A DNA stretch of 32,000 bases, taken from contig NC_013202.1 in NCBI RefSeq assembly GCF_000023965.1, positions 780,001-812,000 on the forward strand, written 5' to 3'. A program made the translations under genes and the position numbers. This DNA is from Halomicrobium mukohataei DSM 12286. Its GTDB lineage: Archaea; Halobacteriota; Halobacteria; Halobacteriales; Haloarculaceae. The notes beneath the pieces were generated by a model. It saw nothing but the letters and a program-made list of their open reading frames with translations, was not told the origin of the DNA and made no database searches. Each line of letters opens with the position of its first letter. Within the stretch, counting starts at the first letter, position 1. Shown here piece after piece: positions 9,388 to 28,608 of this stretch.

Positions 9388-10680
9388 ATGAGCGACGACC
9401 GCGGATTCGAGACCGACGCACTGCACGTGGGACAGGAGACGCCAGAATCTCACGCGAACGCTCGCGCCCCACCGATCTACCAGACGACCTCCTACGTCTT
9501 CGAGGATGCCGAGGACGCGGCGGCACAGTTCGCCCTGGAGAAGCCGGGCCACATCTACTCGCGGCTGATGAACCCGACCACGGGCATGTTACAGGAACGT
9601 ATCGCTGCACTCGAAGGCGGGGTCGGTGCGGTCGCGACCTCTTCGGGGATGGCGGCGCTGAATCTCGCGACCTTCCTGCTGGCCGACGCCGGGGACAACA
9701 TCGTCACGGCGTCCTCGCTGTACGGCGGCACGTACACGTACTTCACTCACACCGCGCCGCGCAACGGCGTCGAGGCCCGCTTCGTCGATACGCTGGACTA
9801 CGAGGCCTACGAGGAGGCCATCGACGAGGACACGGCCTACGTCCACTGTGAGACGATCGGCAATCCGTCGCTGGTGACCCCGGACTTCGAGCGACTGGCC
9901 GAGATCGCCCACGACAACGGCGTCCCACTCTTTGTCGACAACACCTTCGCGACGCCGTACCTCTCGAACCCGATCGAGCACGGGGCCGACATCGTCTGGA
10001 ACTCCACGACCAAGTGGATCCACGGCCACGGCACGACCGTCGGCGGCGTCCTCGTCGACGGCGGAAGCTTCCCGTGGAACGAGCACGCCGAGAAGTACCC
10101 AGAGATCGCCCAGGACAACCCCGCCTACCACGGGATCAACTTCGACGAGACGTTCGGGCCTGCGGGGCTCACTTACGCCGCCATCGCGCGCGGCCTCCGT
10201 GACATGGGCAACCAGCAGTCCCCCTTCGACGCCTGGAACACGATCCAGGGCCTCGAAACCCTCCCGGTTCGGATGGAACGCCACTGCGAGAACGCGATGG
10301 CCGTCGCCGAGCACCTGGCCGACCACCCCGAGGTCTCGTGGGTCACCTACCCCGGACTCGACGACCACGAGACCCACGACAACGCCAGCGAGTACTTAGA
10401 CGGTGGCTACGGCGGGATGATCACGTTCGGACTGGAAGACGGCTACGACGCCGCACGGGGCACCGTCGAATCCACAGAGATCGCCTCGCTGCTGGCAAAC
10501 GTCGGCGACGCGAAGACGCTGATCATCCACCCCGCATCGACGACTCACCAGCAACTCACCGACGAGGAGAAGCAGGCCGCCGGCGTCACGAACGACCTCG
10601 TTCGGCTCTCCGTGGGTCTGGAGTCGGCCGACGACATCATCGCAGACCTCGACCAGGCGATCGAGCGGGCGACGAGCTAG
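9388..10680 (+). CDS. metY: O-acetylhomoserine sulfhydrylase (PLP-dependent Cys/Met metabolism family)
   Basis: ETDALHVGQE N-terminus, the NSTTKWIHGHG PLP-lysine box, and 430 aa length. Confidence 0.9.
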   Translation: MSDDRGFETDALHVGQETPESHANARAPPIYQTTSYVFEDAEDAAAQFALEKPGHIYSRLMNPTTGMLQERIAALEGGVGAVATSSGMAALNLATFLLADAGDNIVTASSLYGGTYTYFTHTAPRNGVEARFVDTLDYEAYEEAIDEDTAYVHCETIGNPSLVTPDFERLAEIAHDNGVPLFVDNTFATPYLSNPIEHGADIVWNSTTKWIHGHGTTVGGVLVDGGSFPWNEHAEKYPEIAQDNPAYHGINFDETFGPAGLTYAAIARGLRDMGNQQSPFDAWNTIQGLETLPVRMERHCENAMAVAEHLADHPEVSWVTYPGLDDHETHDNASEYLDGGYGGMITFGLEDGYDAARGTVESTEIASLLANVGDAKTLIIHPASTTHQQLTDEEKQAAGVTNDLVRLSVGLESADDIIADLDQAIERATS

Positions 10681-11174
10681 AGGCCACTCAGCACGCCCGC
10701 CGCGCCGGCCACCAGCGGCACCAACACGAGCAGATACGCCGCCGCCGAGACGGCCCAGTCACGGGTGATCGTCCGCACCCGCTGGCGGGCCAAGCCCGGG
10801 CGCGGGAGGACGACGACGGCGAAGAACCCGACCATTAGGACGAGCAGGACGACCGCGGTCAGCAGGTACGTCACCACGCCGTCGCCGAGGACGTTCCCGA
10901 CGAGCAACAGTAGCGTCACGTACAGCGGCCCGGTGAGCCAGCCCGCGGCGTGGTGGACGACGGCGGCGAGGCGCTTCGGTGCGCTGTCGGGGTTCTGCTC
11001 GGTCAGGACGCCCGACGCGACGAACGGCGGCGTCTCACCCTCTGGCAGGCGAGCCATCACCACGTCCATCCCGCGGGTCGCGAGCATCCCGGCGACGATG
11101 CCGAAGGTAATCAGTAGCGCCACTCCCGGTGAGACCGACGAGAGAATCGTCATACCAGTGGATGGGGTCGCCAC
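10677..11174 (-). CDS. Membrane protein of unknown function
   Basis: 165-aa hydrophobic ORF with 4-5 TM segments. Its stop overlaps the metY stop by 4 nt (convergent). Exact start uncertain. Confidence 0.6.
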   Translation of the reverse strand: MATPSTGMTILSSVSPGVALLITFGIVAGMLATRGMDVVMARLPEGETPPFVASGVLTEQNPDSAPKRLAAVVHHAAGWLTGPLYVTLLLLVGNVLGDGVVTYLLTAVVLLVLMVGFFAVVVLPRPGLARQRVRTITRDWAVSAAAYLLVLVPLVAGAAGVLSGL

Positions 11175-11198: not shown

Positions 11199-11831
11199 CT
11201 ACAGCACGCTCTCGCCTTCGAGCAGCTCGGACAGCTCGGCCATCGTCTCGACGATGGTGTCACACGAGGGGGCGACCGCGGGCTTCGGGTCGAAGCCGAC
11301 GGCCAGTCCCGCCACTTCCAGCATCGGGAGGTCGTTTGCTCCGTCGCCGACGGCGATCGTGTCGTCGCGGTCCTCGCCGACGACCGTCGTCACGATGTCT
11401 AAGGCGTCGTCCTTGGTGCCCTCGATGAGCGGCCCCTCGACCGCGCCGGTGAGCTTCCCGTCGGCGACGGGCAGGCGGTTGGCGACGATCGCGTCGACCT
11501 CTACCCCCTCGGCTTCGAGTGCAGCCTCGACGCCGCGTTCGAAGCCGCCGGTGAGGATACAGACGTAGACGCCCGCTTCGCGCAGGGCCTCGATCACGTC
11601 GGCCGCGCCGGGGCGAAGCTCGACCCGATCGAACGCCGCCTGTGCCGTCTCGTCGTCCATTCCCTCCAGCAGCGCACACCGCTGATAGAGGCTCTCCGCG
11701 TACTCGATCTCGTCGTTCATCGCCCGCTCGGTGATCTCGGCCATGTCCTCGGCCGTGTCGTTCTGATTGCCCAGCAGGACGGTCATCTCCGAATCTGAGA
11801 GGGTCCCGTCGAAGTCGAAGGCGACTAGCAT
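11199..11831 (-). CDS. serB: Phosphoserine phosphatase (HAD superfamily)
   Basis: HAD motif I FDFDGTL and motif IV GDGANDL. Start placed at ATG 11831, because the track's 11861 start is a TTG extension. Confidence 0.8.
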   Translation of the reverse strand: MLVAFDFDGTLSDSEMTVLLGNQNDTAEDMAEITERAMNDEIEYAESLYQRCALLEGMDDETAQAAFDRVELRPGAADVIEALREAGVYVCILTGGFERGVEAALEAEGVEVDAIVANRLPVADGKLTGAVEGPLIEGTKDDALDIVTTVVGEDRDDTIAVGDGANDLPMLEVAGLAVGFDPKPAVAPSCDTIVETMAELSELLEGESVL

Positions 11832-11915
11832 TGTCAGGCGGTTTCTCGCGGAGGGTTTCAAAGGGTCCGGTTTCGAGTGGAGTGGTCGCGGATCGACGGG
11901 TTCGGTCGCGACGGG

Positions 11916-11948
11916 CTACGGCGTCGGCGGTGGCCCGTCGTAGCCGTC
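11916..11948. repeat. 33-bp direct repeat, copy 1 (att-like; copy of the XPD 3' end)
   Basis: ctacggcgtcggcggtggcccgtcgtagccgtc matches 13918..13950 at 32 of 33 positions. Confidence 0.9.
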
Positions 11949-12217
11949 TATATCGATCGTATCCCTTTGCTCAGGAACGGACGATTACTGGCCAGTTGGG
12001 ATAAATATATTTTCAGTACACAAATCTGATCCGTATAAACGCTTCAAGCTAGTCCCCTTCAAGAGATACAGAGTACCGTTATAATCTCATCTTTCGTCTA
12101 TCGAGTTGTACCTAATATATTTATAAAATAATATAGAATTAAATTATTTATTATAGTATAAAAATATAGTATAAATCAATAAATAAAACTAAGTGGCTTG
12201 CCAACTTCCGAGGAGAT

Positions 12218-12391
12218 ATGTCGCTGTCAAGAGATATCTTGCTATTCAGCATCGTCTTGATGATCTGGTCAATTCAAGCTGAAATGACACCAGGTGGTTC
12301 CACAATCATTGTGGTTGCATCAATGGTATTTGCCTTGGCTGGACTTGCAGGTAGCATCTATCGTTCAGCGGATGAGATACTACTAGATTGA
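12218..12391 (+). CDS. Small two-TM membrane protein (57 aa)
   Basis: Below the ORF track size cutoff. Hand translation: MSLSRDILLFSIVLMIWSIQAEMTPGGSTIIVVASMVFALAGLAGSIYRSADEILLD. Preceded by ggagat. Confidence 0.4.
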   Translation: MSLSRDILLFSIVLMIWSIQAEMTPGGSTIIVVASMVFALAGLAGSIYRSADEILLD

Positions 12392-12611
12392 GGAAATCGG
12401 GAACTCAGAGTACGTTAATCAGAGAAATTATGCAATTTGTGGGCTCAAAAACAGTGGTTTTCCACCTCAGACTGCACAACAGCCTATCACGACTGGCTAA
12501 ATAAAAATATAACAAACATATATGGTGACCAAAACTATACAGTGAAACCACTGTCTATGCAAGATCAGACTTGACCCGTGAAATAAAAACAAATGTCAAA
12601 TATATATTGGC

Positions 12612-13562
12612 CTATCTTTTCACTCCGTCAATCCTAAGCGTTTCAACAGTAGCGTCAAAGTTCATCTTTGATCCTGTAGTCCACAACCCGCAACTCAGGC
12701 TGCCGCCAAATGCTACACCGATCCGATATTCGTTTCCCTCTCTAAACCCTTCCCAAGTCGCTGATTCTGTACTCCTTGCTGTGCCACTATCGTAATTCCT
12801 GCCAGTTTCACTTGCCGTAGTGATGTCGAAGTTGCTCTCACTACTGAAATTTCTCGTAATTGTTGTCTCCTTTGATAAATTCTGAACAAAATACCCCACC
12901 GAAATCCCAGTGTGGTTCTCATAGCCATCGACTTTATCAGACATCCCGAGCAAGAAATTTGCAGTTCCTAGTGCTATCGGGATATAGGCTGGTGGCACTG
13001 ACTCGGGCGTAACTTTTGATGTGACCTGCTTTTTCACATCTTTCAAACGCTTCTTATTAGCACGACTTTTTCTCCCTGTTTTGTTTGATCGCTCGCTAGT
13101 CTGTGGGTCAACGTATTCAGTGTAGCCTGGATTAAGCTCATATTCGAGTTCTACGTCGATGAAGATGTCTAATTTGTCTGACTTGGCCTCAAACGGAGTC
13201 CCCATCACGACACCGAAAGTGTCCTTGGGACCAGCGGCTGTCCGTTGGGTCTGTCCACTGACATTACCAGTTGGACCAGATTCAACATCCAGATTATCAA
13301 AACCCTGATTTGTCACCCGGTCGGCCTCAAAACTGTCGGATTCTGTCTTTTTCAGCGTATCTCCAGGCTCAATTGTCGGAGGGTTCTTCTGTGAATTTGG
13401 AGGGAGACCAGATAGGATCACTCCATCACTAGTCAGCGTATTGGCCTCATCGTCATCCTCTGCTGTATCTCCCTGAACGCTGCCCGCTACTCCAATTGTC
13501 CCGACCGTGCTAGTTGCTACAAGTTGGGCAAACTTCCGCCTGCCAATTTTTCGTGACATCAT
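12612..13562 (-). CDS. Tat-signal secreted protein of unknown function
   Basis: Start placed at MMSRKIGRRKFAQLVATSTVGTIGVAG (twin-arginine signal). The mature part is S/T/N/G-rich and looks beta-rich. Low-GC codon usage. Confidence 0.7.
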   Translation of the reverse strand: MMSRKIGRRKFAQLVATSTVGTIGVAGSVQGDTAEDDDEANTLTSDGVILSGLPPNSQKNPPTIEPGDTLKKTESDSFEADRVTNQGFDNLDVESGPTGNVSGQTQRTAAGPKDTFGVVMGTPFEAKSDKLDIFIDVELEYELNPGYTEYVDPQTSERSNKTGRKSRANKKRLKDVKKQVTSKVTPESVPPAYIPIALGTANFLLGMSDKVDGYENHTGISVGYFVQNLSKETTITRNFSSESNFDITTASETGRNYDSGTARSTESATWEGFREGNEYRIGVAFGGSLSCGLWTTGSKMNFDATVETLRIDGVKR

Positions 13563-13917
13563 AGACGCATTAACCAAGCATACATTTCTTCTTTTTGTCT
13601 GGAGCAATTTAGACATTACTGAGAACTAACTTTAATGAGAAAGAATAAGAGTACCATGTCGGCAGTGCTAGAAATGAATGACTTCATTGTCTATATTTGG
13701 ATATGTGCGTGGCTTTTCGGATATTCATATCTATGAGTTGAAATCCAACCGTATACAGACAATAAAATAATATCACTTTGTCTATCTCATATCGTTAAAA
13801 AACCACAACATAATATAAAACACATAAATTTATAGGTGGGTACTGTTGTGATATACATAATATTGGTGGCGATTGAATAATGTCACAAGCCAGAACAGCA
13901 CTTTGCATCCGTCGATC

Positions 13918-20624: not shown

Positions 20625-20700
20625 TCGGAGGGTGTGTTCTGGTTCGAACATTGTTTCTGGAATACGAACACTCATATTGTTTTGACGAACTGGAAATAGC

Positions 20701-21723
20701 GTGTACCAGTTTACCCCTGACGAAATCGACAGCAGTCGAGCCAATCACCAGGCCGTTATTCAGGATGCAGAGAACATCGATGCGAAGCGGATTGGGAACC
20801 TCGGGGAGATCGCGTTCGAGCAGTTCTGCCGAGAGTATCTGCCAGCAGAGATGTGGGAGTGGCAGAACGAGGATGCGATCAGACGATGTAACCCGGAGAG
20901 TTTCGCGGGACACGACTTCGAGGTGTTCGGCTACGAAGTCGACGTGAAGACCTCTCGCGACGTGTCAGCGTTTCTCCCGGAGAATCTGGTCGAGATGGAT
21001 TCAGCCGACGACATCATCGTGATGGTCTGGCACCGGGACAACGAAGACAGCCTGATTCTGCTCGGCTGGGAGCACGTCGCCACGCTCGAGTCGAAAGTCG
21101 AGACCGAGGAACAGTTCTCGGGGGACACTCCGGCGAAGCTCGACCACCTCGCCGCTCGGCCGATGAACGACCTCCAGGACCTCGGACCGAACACGGCGAA
21201 CATGAACCAGAAACCGGAGAACCCGTTTCAGCCGGGTGATCGCGTCGAGAAGCGAGACGACGAAGATGCCTCGGTGGGGGTCGTCGTCGAGGTTCTGCCA
21301 CCGGAGACGCAGATCGAACTATTCGGGCAGGAAATGGACGGCGAAGCCGTCCGGGTAGCGTTCCCCAGCTCGCTCGACGAGGGACCAGGCGACTGGCGAG
21401 ACATCGAGCCAGCACTGTTGTCCTCGTACTGCGACGATCAGGACGTTAGCCTCTACACGTACAAGCACGAGAACCTGAAGTTCGCGGAGAATCCGTACAC
21501 AGTCGGTGATTACGTTGTCAAGTCCTCACACGACGACCCGAACCTCGCCGTGGTCGTCGGGATCGACGGCGACGAGGTGAGTGTCGTCTACGAAGGTCCG
21601 ACCGGAGAGGAAGTTGCACCGGCGAACCTCTCTGATCACTGTGACGACGAAGACCTGAAACGGTATCAATACTCACCTGACGAACTGGAGTTCACCACGC
21701 TCGAGGAGCACGGCGAGGATTAG
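20701..21723 (+). CDS. PD-(D/E)xK nuclease-fold-like protein with two C-terminal SH3/Tudor-like repeats
   Basis: The N-terminal domain has GNLGEIAFE ... HDFEVFGYEVDVKTS (an E ... D ... D/ExK arrangement). The C-terminal half is an internal duplication (ENPFQPGDRVEKRDDEDASVGVVVEV... versus ENPYTVGDYVVKSSHDDPNLAVVVGI...). GTG start. GC is lower than in core genes. Confidence 0.6.
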   Translation: MYQFTPDEIDSSRANHQAVIQDAENIDAKRIGNLGEIAFEQFCREYLPAEMWEWQNEDAIRRCNPESFAGHDFEVFGYEVDVKTSRDVSAFLPENLVEMDSADDIIVMVWHRDNEDSLILLGWEHVATLESKVETEEQFSGDTPAKLDHLAARPMNDLQDLGPNTANMNQKPENPFQPGDRVEKRDDEDASVGVVVEVLPPETQIELFGQEMDGEAVRVAFPSSLDEGPGDWRDIEPALLSSYCDDQDVSLYTYKHENLKFAENPYTVGDYVVKSSHDDPNLAVVVGIDGDEVSVVYEGPTGEEVAPANLSDHCDDEDLKRYQYSPDELEFTTLEEHGED

Positions 21724-21884
21724 ACCTCGATTGTCCGATAATTCTCTTCGACCTGTTCCACTGGTTCTTCGATTTTCCGACCACACGCCACGCACTGGAG
21801 TCCGATCCGACTGCCGGGGAGCGTAACCGCCTCGATCGTCGCATCACACCCAGCGGGGCAACATAGCCATTCGTTCAGGGACAT
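21720..21884 (-). CDS. Zinc-ribbon microprotein (54 aa)
   Basis: Below the track cutoff. Hand translation: MSLNEWLCCPAGCDATIEAVTLPGSRIGLQCVACGRKIEEPVEQVEENYRTIEV, with CCPAGC and CVAC pairs. Its stop codon overlaps the stop of 20701..21723 (convergent). Confidence 0.5.
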   Translation of the reverse strand: MSLNEWLCCPAGCDATIEAVTLPGSRIGLQCVACGRKIEEPVEQVEENYRTIEV

Positions 21885-21930
21885 CGGATATGGATCAAGG
21901 ATATGTGTGAGTAAAAGTGAGGGCCAACGC

Positions 21931-21951
21931 CGGAGTGAAAGTGAAACTGAA
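21931..21951 (+). repeat. Left arm of a 21-bp imperfect inverted repeat bracketing 21931..26286
   Basis: cggagtgaaagtgaaactgaa versus the reverse complement of 26266..26286, cggagtgaaagtgtaaccgaa. 19 of 21 positions match, and the first 13 are perfect. Confidence 0.45.
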
Positions 21952-22140
21952 ATTCACCAAACAGCGGCTGCGAAATATGTTTAGAATAATATTTACCCAA
22001 AATATTTTTTAATCTATATATAGGTTAATTATCTTTCAATTTTTAAATTTTCATAACAGAATCTGTAATCGGGTATAGTGGTTTTTATTACCGGGTGCTT
22101 CAGCGAAAGGCTGAAATTCTTAGAAAGACTTCCTTTATAT

Positions 22141-22458
22141 ATGAATGAAGCTATCCAAGAATATATATTTGTTTTTGCTATCATGATATTAATGTATGTA
22201 CTCGTAAGGTACCAGTATCTAACGCCACGAATGATTGGATTTGACACAATTATCAGGAACACTCCTGATGAGAAAGCAGCATATATCATTTCAAATGTAT
22301 ACCTTCGGATTGGTGTCTTGTGCTTATTGGGTATCTTGATTGAGACCTTATTTCAACCACCAAGCTACTCACGAAATATTTTAATAGGAATTGCAATTCT
22401 TGACCAGCTAATAGTGATACTGAAGTTGTATTTTGAACACACATATAATGTGGGGTGA
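22141..22458 (+). CDS. Membrane protein (105 aa) in extremely AT-rich DNA
   Basis: MNEAIQEYIFVFAIMILMYVLV... has three hydrophobic segments. An overlapping minus-strand ORF (22029..22289) is an alternative, so the strand call is uncertain in AT-rich sequence. Confidence 0.4.
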   Translation: MNEAIQEYIFVFAIMILMYVLVRYQYLTPRMIGFDTIIRNTPDEKAAYIISNVYLRIGVLCLLGILIETLFQPPSYSRNILIGIAILDQLIVILKLYFEHTYNVG

Positions 22459-22648
22459 CTGTAATTTATAGTGGGAACAATCCATTTTGAAAAGTATAAT
22501 AGCTATCTGGTGTTTCGCACCCCGAAAAGGGTCATAGGACATGCAGTAGGGGGTTAGTGAGTTGAAGAACCGATTATCTCCAACCTTAGTTACAATCATA
22601 TACTGTCACCGCATATTAATATAAATAAGTTTTATATACTATACTCAC

Positions 22649-23131
22649 TTATTCTTCTTTTATGATATTATGGCTCTCAAATTCTGACTTTAGTCCATCA
22701 ATATCAATTTGTTCACGGAACTTCTGATTCCCCAGCCTTATGGGGCGTGTAACTGACTCACCATCTTTTTGATAGACAATTAGTATTATTCGTCCCTGGA
22801 ATGAATCCAACCCTTTGATCTCTTTTATATCTGCTATTTTTATTTTATCTGCTTTATTCATATATCCAAAATAACTAATTGCTTTATTAAAAATATAAGA
22901 TAAAAATATACTAAATACTAGGATGCTGACCACAACCATCCCGATAGTTGATGGGTCAACACCCAATATTAATCCGAATATCGACAAGCAAACAGCAAAT
23001 ATTATCAAAATTTTCACCTTTATATCGGTCAGGACTACTTCGTATAAAGTTCTCCATATTGATTCACTAATATAAATATACTCGCTATCGAACTTAATAG
23101 ATCCTCCCAAAATCCTATGTTCTTCAGCCAT
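22649..23131 (-). CDS. Two-TM membrane protein with a K/I-rich C-terminal soluble domain (possibly bPH/YdbT-like)
   Basis: 160-aa ORF. A TM hairpin (ILIIFAVCLSIFGLILG, MVVVSILVFSIFLSYIF) is followed by a ~70-aa domain. The lysine- and isoleucine-rich composition is unlike typical haloarchaeal proteins. Confidence 0.55.
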   Translation of the reverse strand: MAEEHRILGGSIKFDSEYIYISESIWRTLYEVVLTDIKVKILIIFAVCLSIFGLILGVDPSTIGMVVVSILVFSIFLSYIFNKAISYFGYMNKADKIKIADIKEIKGLDSFQGRIILIVYQKDGESVTRPIRLGNQKFREQIDIDGLKSEFESHNIIKEE

Positions 23132-23197
23132 GATATTTATTTAATAGTTGCTATTTAACTCCTCAACGAATAAGGCTGACGATCCAAGATAGGGGAT

Positions 23198-23698
23198 TTA
23201 AGCGAAGGCGGCTCCCCCTGTAGCCGTGGCAAGAATTCCAATGCCAGCCAGATACACTGATATGGCTGCAAGAGCTGCGATTACTACAACGGCGACAACA
23301 GCTGCCAGAACTGCAACTACGATATCACCCAAGGTAATATCATACCTATCTGCTAGCTCTCGCGCGAATTCCCACGCAAGGTCCTCAGCATCCTTTCTGG
23401 TGATACTATTTTCTCCCACACAAGTTTCAACACAGATTGGTGGCGAGGTGTCCTCAGATCCGATATATGCGCATATGTCTCCAGACTCATCAACCCCCAT
23501 CCCAACGTAGAAACCAACGTCGAACTTAACAAACCCTGAATCCAGAGAGAGATCTCCGGACACCGAGTAGATCTGGGGAGTTCGCCCATAGGCACATTCC
23601 TTACGGCCAAGACTCACCGTATCCTGCATGGTTGAGCAGAACTCTCCACCTCCCACGACATCGGGAATAGCCTCACAATAGTCAATATTGACGCCCAT
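23198..23698 (-). CDS. Cys-containing protein with a long A/V/I/G-rich C-terminal hydrophobic tail
   Basis: 166 aa with six Cys in the first ~95 residues and the C-terminal tail IVVAVLAAVVAVVVIAALAAISVYLAGIGILATATGGAAFA. No signal peptide. Its ATG overlaps the stop of the upstream gene (TAATG). Confidence 0.6.
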   Translation of the reverse strand: MGVNIDYCEAIPDVVGGGEFCSTMQDTVSLGRKECAYGRTPQIYSVSGDLSLDSGFVKFDVGFYVGMGVDESGDICAYIGSEDTSPPICVETCVGENSITRKDAEDLAWEFARELADRYDITLGDIVVAVLAAVVAVVVIAALAAISVYLAGIGILATATGGAAFA

Positions 23699-24180
23699 TA
23701 TTCTTCACCCTCCATCTGAACATCACTCGGAACTGGTCTGCTCTCAATCACAGTTGGTTCAAATGCCTTGTTTGATTGCGGAATTTTCAGTTTATAGACA
23801 GCACCGTCTCTCCAGAACTTCAGCCGGTTTCCTTTCATCCACTCAAGGTTTAGTGCCCCCGTCCGACTTTCCGAGGTAACCTGATAGATCTCATCTGGGG
23901 TTTGCTCTGCTTTTGTTACACCAGTCGCAATGAACAGTTCAACTGTCCCAGTGAAAACGGACGTTGAAAATGCCATACGATCATGATTCGGCTGCTTTGA
24001 TCGTGTGGTAGAACCCAGCAATTCAATCGCGAGGTCCTTCACGGATTCATCGCTGTACTTGCTGTCTTCTATTGAGGGGTATTTTTCTTTTGCACTTACG
24101 ACTAGCGGTGAGGAAGCAATGACTGCAGTACTTCCAACTCCTGCCAGTACATCTCTCCTACTGAGGTTGTTATTTCCCAC
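23698..24180 (-). CDS. Tat-signal secreted protein of unknown function
   Basis: MGNNNLSRRDVLAGVGSTAVIASSPLVVSA has a twin-arginine motif plus a hydrophobic region. 160 aa. Confidence 0.65.
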   Translation of the reverse strand: MGNNNLSRRDVLAGVGSTAVIASSPLVVSAKEKYPSIEDSKYSDESVKDLAIELLGSTTRSKQPNHDRMAFSTSVFTGTVELFIATGVTKAEQTPDEIYQVTSESRTGALNLEWMKGNRLKFWRDGAVYKLKIPQSNKAFEPTVIESRPVPSDVQMEGEE

Positions 24181-24264
24181 ATAGAGCGCTTAGTTCTAAT
24201 CTCAGTTAAAGATTATTTAGGCACTCTAACTATGTTACAATTGCTACTATTGTCTTTCGGGGAC

Positions 24265-25233
24265 CTAATTTTGGAGTTTAGAGAGTATATCCGACCAGGA
24301 GAGATCTTGTGAGAACAGATCCGATTCGAGGTTCCACGACCATGGTGCGGCGTCGTTGGGATCTGGTTCGTGGCCAGTCGGCTCGAGATCCTCAATCGAC
24401 CCACCGAAGAGTTGGTCGGTCGGATGGTCACCGTCAGCAGGCCAGCGATCGTAGAACTCGACGACTTTCTTGTCGGTCTTGTAGTACGCCAGCGTCGCCA
24501 TGCGCTTCAGCTCCGGGTGAGCGTCTTTCCCGGTGTGAATCACGTTGCCGCAGGCGTCGACGCCGATCTTGGCGAATCGCTTGGCGAGTGGTGTCCACTG
24601 GGTCGCGACCTCTCGACGATAGGTTCGAGCGTCGAAGTGCGTCGACGACTCGTCGATGAAGACGAACTTCGGAACGTCGCGGTGTTCCAGAAGGGTGACG
24701 GCGAGGTCGTGCGCGGAGGTCACGACTTCGTCGGTCAGGGGCCAGCTCCGGACGTTCGAGATGATCATGTACTCGTCGAGCTGGGTTTTTCGTAATTCAG
24801 CGACTAGGGACATGGTATTGGTCTTGCCTGTGTTGGGATTGCCCGCGCCGAGGATGAACGCCGGTGCCTCGTTGTTCTCGATCTCGTCAAGGAGCATCAT
24901 TGGGAGCCGAAGCGTAGAGCTATCGAGATCCTGCTCGGTGACGCCGACCAAGTGCGACATGACCGAGCCGTTTCCGTTGGTGACGGCTTTGGTCGTCCGA
25001 TCGGCGAGGTACTTCTCCAGCAGCGTCTCGCCGAGTTTCGACTCTTCGAACGATGTCGTGTCGAGATCGCCACGAGCGACAGCGTCTTCGACGAAGGACA
25101 GCGCTGCTCGATCCTGCGCGTCGTCGACGATTCCGGTGTGGGGATAGTATTGCTCATGTGTTTCGAGACCGCCACGAATCTGCTCGCGGAGCTTCGCCGC
25201 AGTGAGCAGGTGCTCGTCGACGCCATCAGTCAC
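24265..25233 (-). CDS. P-loop NTPase of unknown family
   Basis: Walker A GAGNPNTGKT and Walker B-like KFVFIDESS, with a ~140-aa N-terminal extension. Start placed at GTG 25233 (GTGACTGA overlap with the upstream stop). The track's TTG start at 25275 is possible. Confidence 0.75.
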   Translation of the reverse strand: MTDGVDEHLLTAAKLREQIRGGLETHEQYYPHTGIVDDAQDRAALSFVEDAVARGDLDTTSFEESKLGETLLEKYLADRTTKAVTNGNGSVMSHLVGVTEQDLDSSTLRLPMMLLDEIENNEAPAFILGAGNPNTGKTNTMSLVAELRKTQLDEYMIISNVRSWPLTDEVVTSAHDLAVTLLEHRDVPKFVFIDESSTHFDARTYRREVATQWTPLAKRFAKIGVDACGNVIHTGKDAHPELKRMATLAYYKTDKKVVEFYDRWPADGDHPTDQLFGGSIEDLEPTGHEPDPNDAAPWSWNLESDLFSQDLSWSDILSKLQN

Positions 25234-26053
25234 CGGCGGGCGCACCCCCGTTCCCAGCTCCGGCGAGATCAGCAAGGTCTTGGTCGAAGTCGATACGAAC
25301 GCCGGGGGTTTCGGACTCCTGCGAGTTCTCTTCAGTCTCGCGAATCTTCCGCTCGAGGCCGAACTGCTCGATCGCGTTGTCGATCTCGTCGGTCAACCCC
25401 CCTCCTTCGTCTGGAAGGGTCCCGCGTTCGAACGTCGAGACGATCCGAAGCACGGCCTTCCGGGTGGCGTTACGGATGATCGTGAACGCCTGGGCTTCGA
25501 TCGCGAAACCACGCTTGGCGTCTTCCTCGAGCTGGCCGCGACACTCCTCGACAGCTTGGAGTGTTTTCATCAGCTCGCGGTCGGACATCGTACCGCGCCA
25601 AGTGCCTTCGACAGTCTGTTCGTCGAGATTGACCTGCTTCCCGAAGGCGAGATCGGGACTCACTCGATCGAGTTGCCCTTCGGTGATCGTCCACTCGCTG
25701 AATCGCTGGCCGGGGATGCGGAAGATGCCGCCCTTCGTGTAGCGAGCGTCGACGTCGACGAGCCAGACGTACGTCGGTTCCCACAGCAGTGACCGGACCT
25801 TCTTGCCGGTCGGTCGACCGACGATCGGGATGATGATGATAGCTGTGAGGCCGATGATCTGGAGGTTGCGCGGGGGTTCGAAGCCGATGACCGACGCCAG
25901 AACGAACGGCCCGAGGCCGAGACCCGACGCCAGGAGCGTCAGGTTCTCGGTCAGCCAGCGGAACGCGCGGAACCAGCGAGATCGACTCGGGTCCTGCTCT
26001 GGTTCGTTAGTCTGTTCCGTCCGGGCTCGGGATCGCTCATGCGACGCGCTCAC
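25226..26053 (-). CDS. Two-TM membrane protein with an acidic, helix-rich C-terminal domain
   Basis: 275 aa. Basic N-terminus, TM segments LTLLASGLGLGPFVLASVIGF and LQIIGLTAIIIIPIVG, then a ~180-aa soluble region. GTG start. Overlaps both neighbouring genes. Confidence 0.7.
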   Translation of the reverse strand: MSASHERSRARTEQTNEPEQDPSRSRWFRAFRWLTENLTLLASGLGLGPFVLASVIGFEPPRNLQIIGLTAIIIIPIVGRPTGKKVRSLLWEPTYVWLVDVDARYTKGGIFRIPGQRFSEWTITEGQLDRVSPDLAFGKQVNLDEQTVEGTWRGTMSDRELMKTLQAVEECRGQLEEDAKRGFAIEAQAFTIIRNATRKAVLRIVSTFERGTLPDEGGGLTDEIDNAIEQFGLERKIRETEENSQESETPGVRIDFDQDLADLAGAGNGGAPAGD

Positions 26054-26150
26054 CTCGTTCGGTCGTGCCGACCTTGGCCGCTGCTTCGTACAGGACTGCG
26101 ACGACGAGCAGCGCCACGAGTACTCGGAGAGCGTTCTTGTGTCCGATCAT
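26037..26150 (-). CDS. Single-TM microprotein (37 aa), first gene of the NTPase cassette
   Basis: Internal ATG of track ORF 26037..26261: MIGHKNALRVLVALLVVAVLYEAAAKVGTTERGERVA. Its stop lies 17 nt inside the next ORF. Confidence 0.4.
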   Translation of the reverse strand: MIGHKNALRVLVALLVVAVLYEAAAKVGTTERGERVA

Positions 26151-26265
26151 GAGTTTACTGGACTGGGACTCCCCAGGAGACGACCGTCGCGATAAACGCC
26201 AGCTGCATTCCGAGCGGCGTGTCGGCAGCCACGCGTCAGACGATCGTTCGGTCCGGCCCACGTCC

Positions 26266-26286
26266 TTCGGTTACACTTTCACTCCG
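26266..26286 (-). repeat. Right arm of the 21-bp imperfect inverted repeat
   Basis: Plus strand reads ttcggttacactttcactccg, the partner of 21931..21951. Confidence 0.45.
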
Positions 26287-26438
26287 CTTTCATCGCTTTT
26301 AACCCATCTCGTGTCCTTGGATCACTCGCGCACCCTCCATCGGTGGTGGGCACCATCCATTTCGTTCCCCTTTCCCGAACGTCGCCCAGCGACAGCTGTC
26401 GCGCCAACAGTAACAAGCACCGGGGTGTAACTGCCGGT

Positions 26439-27650
26439 ATGCTCGCTTTCGATGACGTGCTGGCCGCCCGCGATCGCGTCGCCGAGACGGCTCGACACAC
26501 CCCGCTCGACTACTCGCACACCTTCTCGTCGATGACGGGCGCAGACGTACACCTCAAGCTCGAACTGTTCCAGCGGACCGGCTCGTTCAAGATCCGCGGC
26601 GCGACCAACCGGATCGCGACACTGTCGGAGGGAGAACGCGAGGCGGGCGTCGTCACCGCCAGCGCGGGCAACCACGCCCAGGGCGTGGCGCTGGCGGCGA
26701 CCCGTATCGGCGTCGATTCGACGATCGTCATGCCCGAACGCGCCCCCGTCTCGAAGGTCCAGGCCACCGAAAGTTACGGTGGGAACGTGGTCCTCCACGG
26801 GCGAGACTACGACGCGGCCGCCCAGAAGGCCCACGAGATCGAGCGCGAGTCCGGCCGGACCTACGTCCACGCCTTCGACGACGAGATGGTGATGGCCGGC
26901 CAGGGGACGATCGGACTGGAGATCTACGAGGACCTGCCCGGCGTCGACACCGTCGTCGTCCCCATCGGCGGCGGCGGCCTCATCAGCGGGATCGCGACGG
27001 CGCTGAAGGGCCAGGACGACGACGTGCGCGTGATCGGCGTGCAGGCAGACGGGGCGTCCAGCGTCGCCGAGTCCCTGAAGAAGGGCCACCGGATCGAACG
27101 CGATTCGGTCCAGACGATCGCCGACGGGATCGCGACCCGGACCATCGGCGACCGGACGTTCGAGGTGATCGAAGAGCGCGTCGACGAGGTCGTCACCGTC
27201 ACCGATCCGGAGATCGCCGTCGCGCTGACGACGCTGCTGGAGCGGTCGAAGACGCTGGCCGAGGGAGCGGGCGCGGTCCCGCTTGCGGCCCTGCTCGAAG
27301 GGAAGTTCGACTACGAGGACGACGAGACGATCGTTCCGACGCTCTGTGGGGGCAACATCGACCTGAACACGCTGACGAACGTCATCATGCGAGGGCTGGT
27401 CGAGACCGGGCGGTACTGCAAGATCAGGACCGTCCTGGAGGATCGGCCGGGCTCGCTGGAGGAACTGGTCGAGGTGCTGTCGGCGGCCCAGGTCAACGTC
27501 TACGGCATCGAGCACGACCGGACCTCGCGGGACATCGCCATGAACGACGCCGAGGTCGAGTTGGACTTGGAGACGCGGGGGCCGGACCACGTCGCGGAGC
27601 TGCTCGATCGGCTCGAAGACGCGGGCTTCGAGGTCGAAGTCCTGGTGTAG
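26439..27650 (+). CDS. ilvA: Threonine ammonia-lyase (threonine dehydratase) with C-terminal ACT-like domain
   Basis: PLP-lysine box SFKIRGA and glycine loop PIGGGGLISG. Start placed at the ATG (MLAFDDVL). 403 aa. Confidence 0.9.
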   Translation: MLAFDDVLAARDRVAETARHTPLDYSHTFSSMTGADVHLKLELFQRTGSFKIRGATNRIATLSEGEREAGVVTASAGNHAQGVALAATRIGVDSTIVMPERAPVSKVQATESYGGNVVLHGRDYDAAAQKAHEIERESGRTYVHAFDDEMVMAGQGTIGLEIYEDLPGVDTVVVPIGGGGLISGIATALKGQDDDVRVIGVQADGASSVAESLKKGHRIERDSVQTIADGIATRTIGDRTFEVIEERVDEVVTVTDPEIAVALTTLLERSKTLAEGAGAVPLAALLEGKFDYEDDETIVPTLCGGNIDLNTLTNVIMRGLVETGRYCKIRTVLEDRPGSLEELVEVLSAAQVNVYGIEHDRTSRDIAMNDAEVELDLETRGPDHVAELLDRLEDAGFEVEVLV

Positions 27651-27689
27651 CGCCCCACATTTATGCCCTCGCCGGTCGCGCGTTGACGT

Positions 27690-28067
27690 ATGAAACGGAT
27701 TGTCAGTACCGACGCCGCCCCCGCCGCGGTCGGAGCGTACAGTCAGGCCACGACGACCGACGACCTCGTCTTTACGGCCGGACAGATCCCGCTGACTCCC
27801 GAGGGCGACCTGCTCGACGAGGCCGCCATCGACGTACAGGCCCAGCAGGCCCTCGAAAACGTCGAGGCCATCCTGGAGTCGTCGGGCACGAGCCTCGACA
27901 ACGTCCTGAAGGTGACGGTGTACCTCGACGACATCGACGACTTCGAGGCGATGGACGACGCCTACGAGAGCTTCTTCGAGAGCGAGCCGCCGGCCCGCAG
28001 CGCCGTCGGCGTCGACGAACTCCCGAAGGGCGTCGGCGTCGAGATCGAGGCGATTGCGACGAAGTAA
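27690..28067 (+). CDS. ridA: RidA/YjgF/L-PSP family enamine/imine deaminase
   Basis: AAPAAVGAYSQA, AGQIPL and a C-terminal LPKGVGVEIEAIA. 125 aa. Confidence 0.9.
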   Translation: MKRIVSTDAAPAAVGAYSQATTTDDLVFTAGQIPLTPEGDLLDEAAIDVQAQQALENVEAILESSGTSLDNVLKVTVYLDDIDDFEAMDDAYESFFESEPPARSAVGVDELPKGVGVEIEAIATK

Positions 28068-28092
28068 AGGCTGACCGGCCCACAGCGTCGGT

Positions 28093-28317
28093 ATGGACGA
28101 TCGCACCAGAGAGAGCCTGCTGTGGGGGGTCGTCGGAACGCTGTCCTTTCTCGTACTCGTCCAGGGCTACGAGCTACTCGCCGCCGCCACGGTGACCGTC
28201 GGCGTCAAGGCCGGCGTCGCCCTGATGGTCGGCGTCACCACCACGGCAGTGACGACCGTCGCCCGCGATCGACTCCTCGACGCCCGGCGTCGCCCAACCG
28301 AGAACGAAAGCCCTTAA
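28093..28317 (+). CDS. Small two-TM membrane protein (74 aa)
   Basis: MDDRTRESLLWGVVGTLSFLVLVQGYELL...VALMVGVTTTAVTTV, with high-GC codon usage. Confidence 0.5.
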   Translation: MDDRTRESLLWGVVGTLSFLVLVQGYELLAAATVTVGVKAGVALMVGVTTTAVTTVARDRLLDARRRPTENESP

Positions 28318-28345
28318 TCACCCGCCCGCCGACGTTTCGATGCGT

Positions 28346-28427
28346 GCCAGGATGGCCGAACGGTAAGGCGCACGCCTGGAAAGCGTGTTCCCTTTCGGGA
28401 TTCTGGGTTCAAATCCCAGTCCTGGCG
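28346..28427 (+). tRNA. tRNA-Ser (anticodon GGA)
   Basis: Hand-folded cloverleaf. Acceptor gccagga/tcctggc, D arm gcc-gaacggtaa-ggc, anticodon arm cacgc-ctGGAaa-gcgtg, long variable arm tccc-tttc-ggga, T arm ctggg-ttcaaat-cccag, discriminator g. No encoded CCA. Confidence 0.85.
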
Positions 28428-28462
28428 TGATTCTGCCGCGAGCAAACTCGCGAGCGGCGACT
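28402..28462 (+). repeat. Direct repeat copy 1: tRNA-Ser T-arm and acceptor plus 35 nt downstream
   Basis: tctgggttcaaatcccagtcctggcgtgattctgccgcgagcaaactcgcgagcggCgact matches 28548..28608 at 60 of 61 positions. Confidence 0.9.
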
Positions 28463-28463
28463 C

Positions 28464-28488
28464 TCCCATCGAGAGGATTTGAACCCCT
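28464..28488 (-). pseudogene. tRNA 3'-fragment-like sequence (T-arm plus acceptor strand) in inverse orientation
   Basis: The minus strand reads aggggttcaaatcctctcgatggga, a T-arm (one G-U pair) with a TTCAAAT loop and a 7-nt acceptor strand. No matching 5' half could be folded. Confidence 0.3.
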
Positions 28489-28547
28489 GGAAGTCGCAGC
28501 CCCGGAACGGCCGAGCGAAGTGAGGCCGCATGCCCGGACCGTCTTCC

Positions 28548-28608
28548 TCTGGGTTCAAATCCCAGTCCTGGCGTGATTCTGCCGCGAGCAAACTCGCGAG
28601 CGGTGACT
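28548..28608 (+). repeat. Direct repeat copy 2 (att-like duplicate of the tRNA-Ser 3' end)
   Basis: Same 61-nt sequence with one C to T change. It lacks the 5' two-thirds of the tRNA. Confidence 0.9.

Follow-up and report, generated by a model that had tools for sequence, protein, structure and literature searches.

A split and decayed pleolipovirus-type provirus as the probable origin of a three-gene NTPase locus in Halomicrobium mukohataei

The core genes of the alphapleolipoviruses follow the order VP3-VP4-ORF5-ORF6-ORF7-VP8 in HRPV-1, with counterparts in HHPV-1, HHPV-2 and Humcor2. VP8, present in HRPV-1 virions, has been described as a putative P-loop NTPase, ORF6 and ORF7 as membrane proteins without known function, possibly linked to assembly, and proviral remnants of this virus group have already been reported (PMC3384331). 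Here we examine a locus of Halomicrobium mukohataei DSM 12286, lying in a stretch of 32,000 nucleotides (NC_013202.1, positions 780,001 to 812,000; hereafter the window), in which three overlapping open reading frames (ORFs) encode a 37-residue peptide, a protein with two transmembrane (TM) helices and a P-loop NTPase. We propose, with a probability of about 0.9, that the locus is the distal part of a decayed provirus of alphapleolipovirus type, most likely a neutral relic. The trio is neither a self-standing cassette nor a new membrane NTPase system.

The layout given in the first-pass annotation was confirmed: the ORFs lie on the minus strand at 26150..26037 (37 amino acids, aa), 26053..25226 (275 aa) and 25233 or 25275..24265 (322 or 336 aa), the TGA at 26039..26037 sits 17 nt within the ORF opened by GTG 26053, and the stop of the second ORF is coupled to the start of the third via GTGACTGA at 25233..25226. 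The GC content at third codon positions of both long ORFs (0.75-0.77) is that of real haloarchaeal genes and marks them as coding. Proteins from the locus are identical to ACV46960, ACV46962 and ACV46963 of DSM 12286, and across 16.8 kb the DNA matches that of strain ZPS1 (CP045142.1) at 100% identity.

The 275-aa protein matches phrog_5952 at E 1e-107 as well as the ORF7 proteins of pleolipoviruses, and the NTPase matches phrog_1979 at E 4e-102. Against the alphapleolipovirus core, identity reaches 41-52% for ORF7 and 52-56% for VP8, the latter over 94-97% of its length against HRPV-1 VP8, the HHPV-1/2 homologues and the Humcor2 ATPase. ORF7 lies directly upstream of VP8 and is recorded as DUF8125/DUF8126; gene order and strand are those of the viral core, as are the overlaps between ORF7 stop and VP8 start and between ORF6 stop and ORF7 ATG. 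Unlike the core, however, the locus has kept only the last 20 codons of VP3, the first 17 of the spike gene (VP4-like) and the last 20 of ORF6, it has no Rep, and its ORF7 is frameshifted at the 5' end. The first-pass annotation had likened the gene order to the ORF6/ORF7/VP8 part of the core and had stated that confident pleolipovirus homology of all three proteins would make this an ordinary degraded provirus. Such homology is strong for ORF7 and VP8 and extends to the small ORF only through a 20-residue ORF6 tail placed behind a spike start, and by that same reasoning the locus is an ordinary degraded provirus. The annotation's view of a single co-translated unit holds in so far as the overlaps are inherited from the viral core operon, but they are no property of a new module. 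The whole segment from 20654 to 26217 is colinear with complete relatives, running through VP3 end, spike start, ORF6 end, ORF7, VP8, a variable block, a CxxC gene and a DUF7961 gene (Table 1).

The breakpoints around the 37-aa ORF were set by nucleotide comparison with a provirus of Halomicrobium katesii (locus L013) and with region 2, the second provirus of the same genome (locus L058). Window 26217-26099 matches the VP3 end and spike start of the former at 89% and of the latter at 87%. The ATG of the small ORF is the spike ATG, 4 nt past the VP3 stop and with the same spacing in the relatives, whose spikes begin with MIGHKNALRLLVALLVVGSV; residues 1-17 of the ORF are identical to them at 16 of 17 positions. 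At the other end, ORF6 of the relatives terminates in AVLYEAVAAKVGTTERGERVA, matching the last 20 residues. About 2.45 kb is absent with respect to L013 6381-8833, comprising the spike body, ORF5 and most of ORF6. From this comparison, the putative micro-TM protein is the scar of an in-frame deletion at a 10-nt microhomology, in which the signal-peptide part of the spike start is fused to the membrane anchor of the ORF6 tail. A small TM protein of 37 aa can thus be read from the DNA, as first described, but it is a chimera and not a member of any gene family. In the same way, the full VP3 and spike genes are indeed missing, although the fragments just described persist; a tblastn search with four spike proteins found nothing in the window beyond spike codons 1-17. 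Neither a gene for Rep, the rolling-circle initiator, nor one for an integrase was found anywhere in the window, in agreement with the first reading of this DNA, and the element is therefore a remnant and not a provirus able to replicate or excise.

A second lesion affects ORF7. In all relatives this gene begins at an ATG overlapping the ORF6 stop (ATGA). The native ATG persists at 26040, out of frame through a 1-nt deletion between 26019 and 26018, so that a frame begun there ends after 29 codons. Only the upstream GTG 26053, which falls within former ORF6 coding sequence, opens the long frame, and this annotated start is fortuitous. The GTG start and the 17-nt overlap, which had been taken for a genuine gene arrangement, are by-products of this 1-nt deletion near the 5' end of ORF7. 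This deletion is no sequencing error, for three independent sources agree on it: the assembly of the window, that of ZPS1 and the protein record of DSM 12286. In the predicted ORF7 model (predicted local distance difference test score, pLDDT, 80), a TM hairpin is combined with a small beta domain and long helices, and a Foldseek search of the PDB with this model gave no match better than E = 2.3. The small ORF7 family numbers 134 representatives when clustered at 50%, and each is 200-300 aa long.

The VP8 gene, on the other hand, is intact. Its start, MTDGVDEHLL, agrees with the family consensus, and the Walker A (GAGNPNTGKT) and Walker B (FVFIDES) motifs seen at first reading are present, with residues G135, P137, G140, K141, T142, D198 and E199 invariant across 44 homologues; Walker A (GxxxxGK[ST]), Walker B (hhhhDE) and a RecA-like core together place the protein among the ASCE P-loop NTPases. 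A 231-aa "truncated" VP8 record, considered as a possible strain variant, proved to be an annotation difference only. In the AlphaFold (AF2) model (pLDDT 87), a helical N-domain of ~125 residues precedes an ASCE core with a parallel sheet. The best structural matches of this core in the PDB and BFVD are assembly ATPases of the Zot/pI type and packaging ATPases of the FtsK-HerA type: the Neisseria Zot N-terminal domain 2r2a (E 7e-6, target TM-score 0.56), inovirus Zot proteins in BFVD (E 2.5e-7), and STIV2 B204 and A32-like packaging ATPases; RecA is matched as well. Sequence identity to the Zot/pI and packaging ATPases is 12-16%, with a query TM-score of ~0.35-0.39. The comparison with Zot-like and FtsK-like ATPases suggested in the first-pass annotation therefore holds at the level of the fold of the VP8 core but not as sequence membership: VP8 has no match to Pfam Zot (PF05707), and a PDB sequence-profile search with the 44 homologues returned nothing. 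Unlike Zot/pI, VP8 has its own helical N-domain and no hydrophobic segment, and the membrane part lies on the separate ORF7.

Zot/pI and packaging ATPases serve viruses that load DNA at a membrane, and filamentous phages exit without lysis. In an intact virus of this group, ORF7 might act as the membrane tether for a soluble VP8 ATPase, which, in the manner of Zot/pI, would serve assembly or genome loading at the budding site. By this analogy we infer that the ORF7-VP8 pair could be functionally like a split pI/Zot, without membership of that family.

Table 1. Features of the provirus remnant and its junctions, in window coordinates
Feature	Position	Strand	Basis or remark
Junction J1 of the 121.7-kb inversion, 8-nt microhomology CCGAGCGG	26210..26217		common to VP3 3' end (reverse complement) and ancestral TrkA-ThrDH spacer
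VP3 (internal membrane protein) remnant, last 20 codons and TAA, PLGMQLAFIATVVSWGVPVQ	26155..26217	-	nucleotide match to relatives
Spike (VP4-like) first 17 codons, MIGHKNALRVLVALLVV, signal-peptide part of 37-aa ORF	26100..26150	-	match to L013 and L058 spikes
Internal deletion junction, imperfect microhomology GTCGT(C/G)GTCG (minus-strand reading), 10 nt	26099..26108		comparison with L013
ORF6-like (DUF8063) last 20 codons and stop, AVLYEAAAKVGTTERGERVA, C-terminal membrane-anchor tail	26037..26099	-	match to relatives
ORF7-like protein (DUF8125/DUF8126)	25226..26053	-	two TM helices, small beta domain, long helices
VP8-like P-loop NTPase, 322 aa from native GTG (MTDGVDEHLL...)	24265..25233	-	intact; helical N-domain and Zot/pI-like ASCE core
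Low-GC (40%) variable block, accessory slot between VP8 and CxxC/DUF7961 genes	21949..24282		2.3 kb
ORFan genes in low-GC block	23698-24180, 23198-23698, 22649-23131	-	three genes
Small CxxC-motif ORF, 54 aa, provirus accessory region	21720..21884	-	inside 93%-identical stretch common to region 2
DUF7961 protein, recurrent pleolipovirus accessory gene	20701..21723	+	homology to region 2

The closest relatives of the ORF7-VP8 stretch (82-88% nucleotide identity) belong to full proviruses. The nearest ones (83% aa, 82% nucleotide identity) lie on metagenomic contigs with complete, sometimes tandem, pleolipovirus genomes in the order Rep, VP3, spike, 62-aa ORF, ORF6 (DUF8063), ORF7 (DUF8125/8126), VP8, integrase. 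Region 2 (Hmuk_0952-0965; Sencilo et al. 2012, PMC3384331) and the provirus of H. katesii DSM 19301 are colinear with the window at 79-93% nucleotide identity and share with it the same tRNA-Arg(TCT) attachment neighbourhood. Both retain Rep, full VP3, spike, ORF5, ORF6 and an integrase with attachment (att) repeats, whereas the window element does not, and its low-GC accessory block differs from theirs. The H. katesii provirus, the closest genomic relative, is itself decaying, with a spike gene broken into two ORFs (L013 6329-8135) and a VP8 gene (9997-11116) interrupted by an insertion of ~150 nt. In the VP8 gene of region 2, an invariant Trp codon is replaced by an in-frame TAG, between APWT and NLQAGLFEKDIDWSELLSKL (L058 ~11712-11714, CP045142.1); the conserved motif at the C-terminus is thereby cut short, and region 2, complete in other respects, may itself be a defective provirus.

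A survey of VP8, in which each species was represented by one genome, covered 44 loci. Most of them hold the full gene set where the contig allows, and five are bare C-terminal VP8 fragments (L051, L052, L054-L056), three of these directly downstream of a tRNA gene. The three are found in two Halorussus genomes (L051, L052) and in Haloarcula pellucida (L055), at ~9600-10400 of each locus: a tRNA gene (Tyr-GTA or Arg-TCT) is followed after ~170-330 nt by the C-terminal third of VP8 only, with a DUF7961 gene further on in two cases. In the remaining two, from Haloarcula (L054, L056), the fragment lies ~5-7 kb from an M29 peptidase orthologue, in a relative orientation opposite to that of the window, and the M29 neighbourhood may be an integration hot spot in Haloarculaceae. 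Together with the remnants of Haloarcula hispanica, Har. marismortui (region 2) and Hfx. volcanii (region 1) (PMC3384331), these loci hold partial core sets, often beside a tRNA. The remnant described here differs from them in that its ORF7 and VP8 frames are full length and that an inversion has parted it from its tRNA side. It does not figure among the H. mukohataei proviral regions in the table of PMC3384331.

The relatives also bear on the other reading put forward in the first-pass annotation, namely a stand-alone membrane-anchored NTPase system for defence or abortive infection, whose likeness to viruses would stem from ancient common descent only. The order of small TM protein, TM protein and P-loop NTPase would suit such a system, as would the adjoining low-GC ORFans. 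However, the 82-88% nucleotide identity to bona fide proviruses includes non-coding junctions and the VP3, spike and ORF6 fragments, the family is narrow and contains ORF7-sized proteins only, the native start of ORF7 is lost, and the stretch has been lost from sister genomes. With a cut-off of E <= 0.01, none of VP8, ORF7, DUF7961 and the three low-GC ORFs matched a model of PADLOC-DB 2.0, and scans of the three proteins and their neighbours against Pfam (local copy), NCBIfam and PADLOC yielded nothing useful. Because VP3, spike and ORF6 fragments flank the genes, the idea of a stand-alone defence system is effectively refuted, and we give it hardly any credence.

The position of the provirus remnant beside host genes is explained by comparison with related genomes. 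In three of them (L059, L060, L061), which represent the empty site, the genes for threonine dehydratase (ThrDH) and a TrkA-domain protein are divergent neighbours; in the genome of the window, the TrkA gene sits 121.7 kb off, right beside region 2. Host sequence homologous to the empty site begins at window 26203 and runs upward (L059 9771-12178 matches window 26203-28593 at 93%), and L059 up to 9780 continues at L058 17328. The second junction (J2) shows the microhomology CCGAG. Sister genomes (L063, L064 and L066 for the adjacency of M29, DUF7961 and tRNA) carry an M29 peptidase gene and DUF7961, then, after ~280 nt, an intron-containing tRNA-Arg(TCT) followed by peptidase-inhibitor and DUF373 genes, and these last two flank the Rep side of region 2 in the genome of the window. 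Region 2 lies between the two copies of a 31-bp direct repeat taken from the 3' end of the tRNA, with a fragment of a second Rep straight after attR; this Rep fragment and the tRNA-Arg att are found 121.7 kb from the window element, beside region 2. Undoing an inversion of CP045142.1 1,449,311-1,570,973 restores both ancestral adjacencies and gives a tandem array: tRNA, region 2, att, Rep', ..., VP3', micro ORF, ORF7, VP8, ..., DUF7961, M29. Since VP3 codons are fused to the upstream region of ThrDH, the arrangement in the window is the derived state.

These comparisons suggest the following history. An old virus would have integrated at tRNA-Arg(TCT), and a newer one, region 2, would then have integrated in tandem at the same tRNA. 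The old copy would have decayed. Finally, a non-reciprocal, microhomology-mediated inversion of 121.7 kb, with breakpoints in VP3 and in the TrkA-ThrDH spacer, would have split the old copy and moved the piece from VP3' to DUF7961 next to ThrDH.

Some points weigh against this account. J2 lacks the 5' part of VP3, so that the inversion was no clean reciprocal exchange and extra DNA was lost at or before the event. The DUF7961 and CxxC genes probably, but not certainly, shared one ancient integration with ORF7 and VP8. VP8 is intact, with ratios of nonsynonymous to synonymous substitution rates (dN/dS) of 0.14-0.21 in pairwise comparisons with intact relatives, and ORF7 keeps a long frame via its GTG; some residual function of either may conceivably persist.

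The second of these points leads to the alternative that the ORF7-VP8 and DUF7961-CxxC pieces stem from two separate integrations at the same tRNA, joined later. The sister genomes, which show no trace of ORF7 or VP8 at the site, hold only DUF7961-CxxC there, and amino-acid identity to region 2 is mosaic (91% for ORF7 and 97% for DUF7961 but only 66% for VP8), which both speak for two integrations. Nevertheless, VP8, variable slot, CxxC and DUF7961 follow one another exactly as they do in region 2 and in the H. katesii provirus, and no att copy or integrase remnant lies between both pieces. We consider two integrations unlikely, and a single decayed provirus remains the preferred explanation.

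As for residual function, the pairwise dN/dS values mostly reflect evolution during viral life. Among codon changes specific to the window, ORF7 shows six nonsynonymous and five synonymous, against 8:42 in relatives (Fisher p = 0.013), which supports relaxed constraint on this gene; in VP8 the ratio (3:12) is not elevated. The lineage-specific codon changes number only ~26, so few that chance alone would be expected to leave the frames intact, and strain ZPS1, being 100% identical, offers no strain variation for a test of selection. The operon region upstream of VP3 is gone and, by our reading of the junction sequence, the TrkA promoter would have stayed with TrkA at the other junction; the ORF7-VP8 pair is most likely without a promoter of its own.

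These data also make it quite improbable that the pair was exapted, that is, retained as useful by the host or by the region-2 provirus, in which case selection would have spared exactly ORF7 and VP8 while the rest decayed. Remnant VP8, with or without the GTG-initiated ORF7, would then be expressed and would complement region-2 VP8 or poison the assembly of superinfecting relatives, for which the odds are just as low. The intact VP8, with its conserved Walker motifs and C-terminal Trp motif, and the TAG replacing that Trp in region-2 VP8 fit such a role, and a pleolipovirus-type provirus of Haloferax volcanii is reported to lower HFPV-1 virus replication (as cited in PMC13612827). Set against this are the loss of the native ORF7 start and the nonsynonymous excess in that gene, the missing promoter region, the loss of the whole ORF7-VP8 stretch in sister genomes, and the low identity of the remnant VP8 to region-2 VP8. 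A neutral proviral relic is the reading we retain.

On the distal side of the remnant, homology to relatives ends at 24283 next to VP8 and resumes in window 21948-20654, which is 93% identical to region 2 and whose lower limit, 20654, is the distal limit of homology; DUF7961 is also present in Halfgib1 and in many of the surveyed proviruses. The ORFan proteins of the intervening low-GC block are membrane-bound or secreted: a Tat-like signal is seen in one, a C-terminal TM segment in another and two TM segments in the third. The block has no relatives in plasmids or in the protein database, and when its 166-aa protein, alone of the three, was queried against 5.8 billion protein clusters, no homologue appeared outside Halomicrobium. 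A second low-GC island (40-45%) occupies window 11900-13900, between genes for a HAD hydrolase and an XPD-like helicase; its 334-aa ORF (12612-13616, minus strand) has no Pfam, PHROG, NCBIfam or PADLOC match, and sister genomes carry other genes at this spot.

Other features of the window and of the region-2 locus were recorded along the way. No att-type direct repeats bracketing the cassette were found. The sole strong repeat is the 3' duplication of tRNA-Ser(GGA) (28345-28428), 2 kb away and unrelated to the cassette, whose 3' 53 nt and flank recur perfectly 146 nt downstream (28402-28454 and 28548-28600); it is an att-like scar of another integrated element, now essentially gone. This tRNA-Ser was rejected as integration site of the remnant because ThrDH, RidA and DUF7981 intervene and the true site is tRNA-Arg(TCT). 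It is the sole find of an Rfam scan; a 101-nt "tRNA-???" with a 4-nt anticodon called by ARAGORN at 11210-11310, inside the HAD hydrolase gene and without Rfam confirmation, is probably a false positive. In the region-2 locus, a 316-aa protein encoded between the old Rep fragment and J2 (L058 16090-17040, minus strand) has a Tat signal, a Cys-rich hydrophobic C-terminus and a weakly halocin-C8-like N-domain (PF22862, E 0.0015), which together make it a possible halocin-type precursor.

All together, the locus adds a third pleolipovirus-derived locus in H. mukohataei to the two published regions, but as a routine decaying provirus it matters little in itself. The predicted structure of VP8 lends fold-level support to its possible role as a Zot/pI-like assembly ATPase. 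From a more general point of view, the locus has modest value as a worked example of how an in-frame deletion and a frameshift alone can mimic a micro-protein gene with an odd ORF overlap, and of how, after tandem integration at one tRNA, a large inversion can leave half a provirus stranded beside housekeeping genes, where it can pass for an independent cassette.

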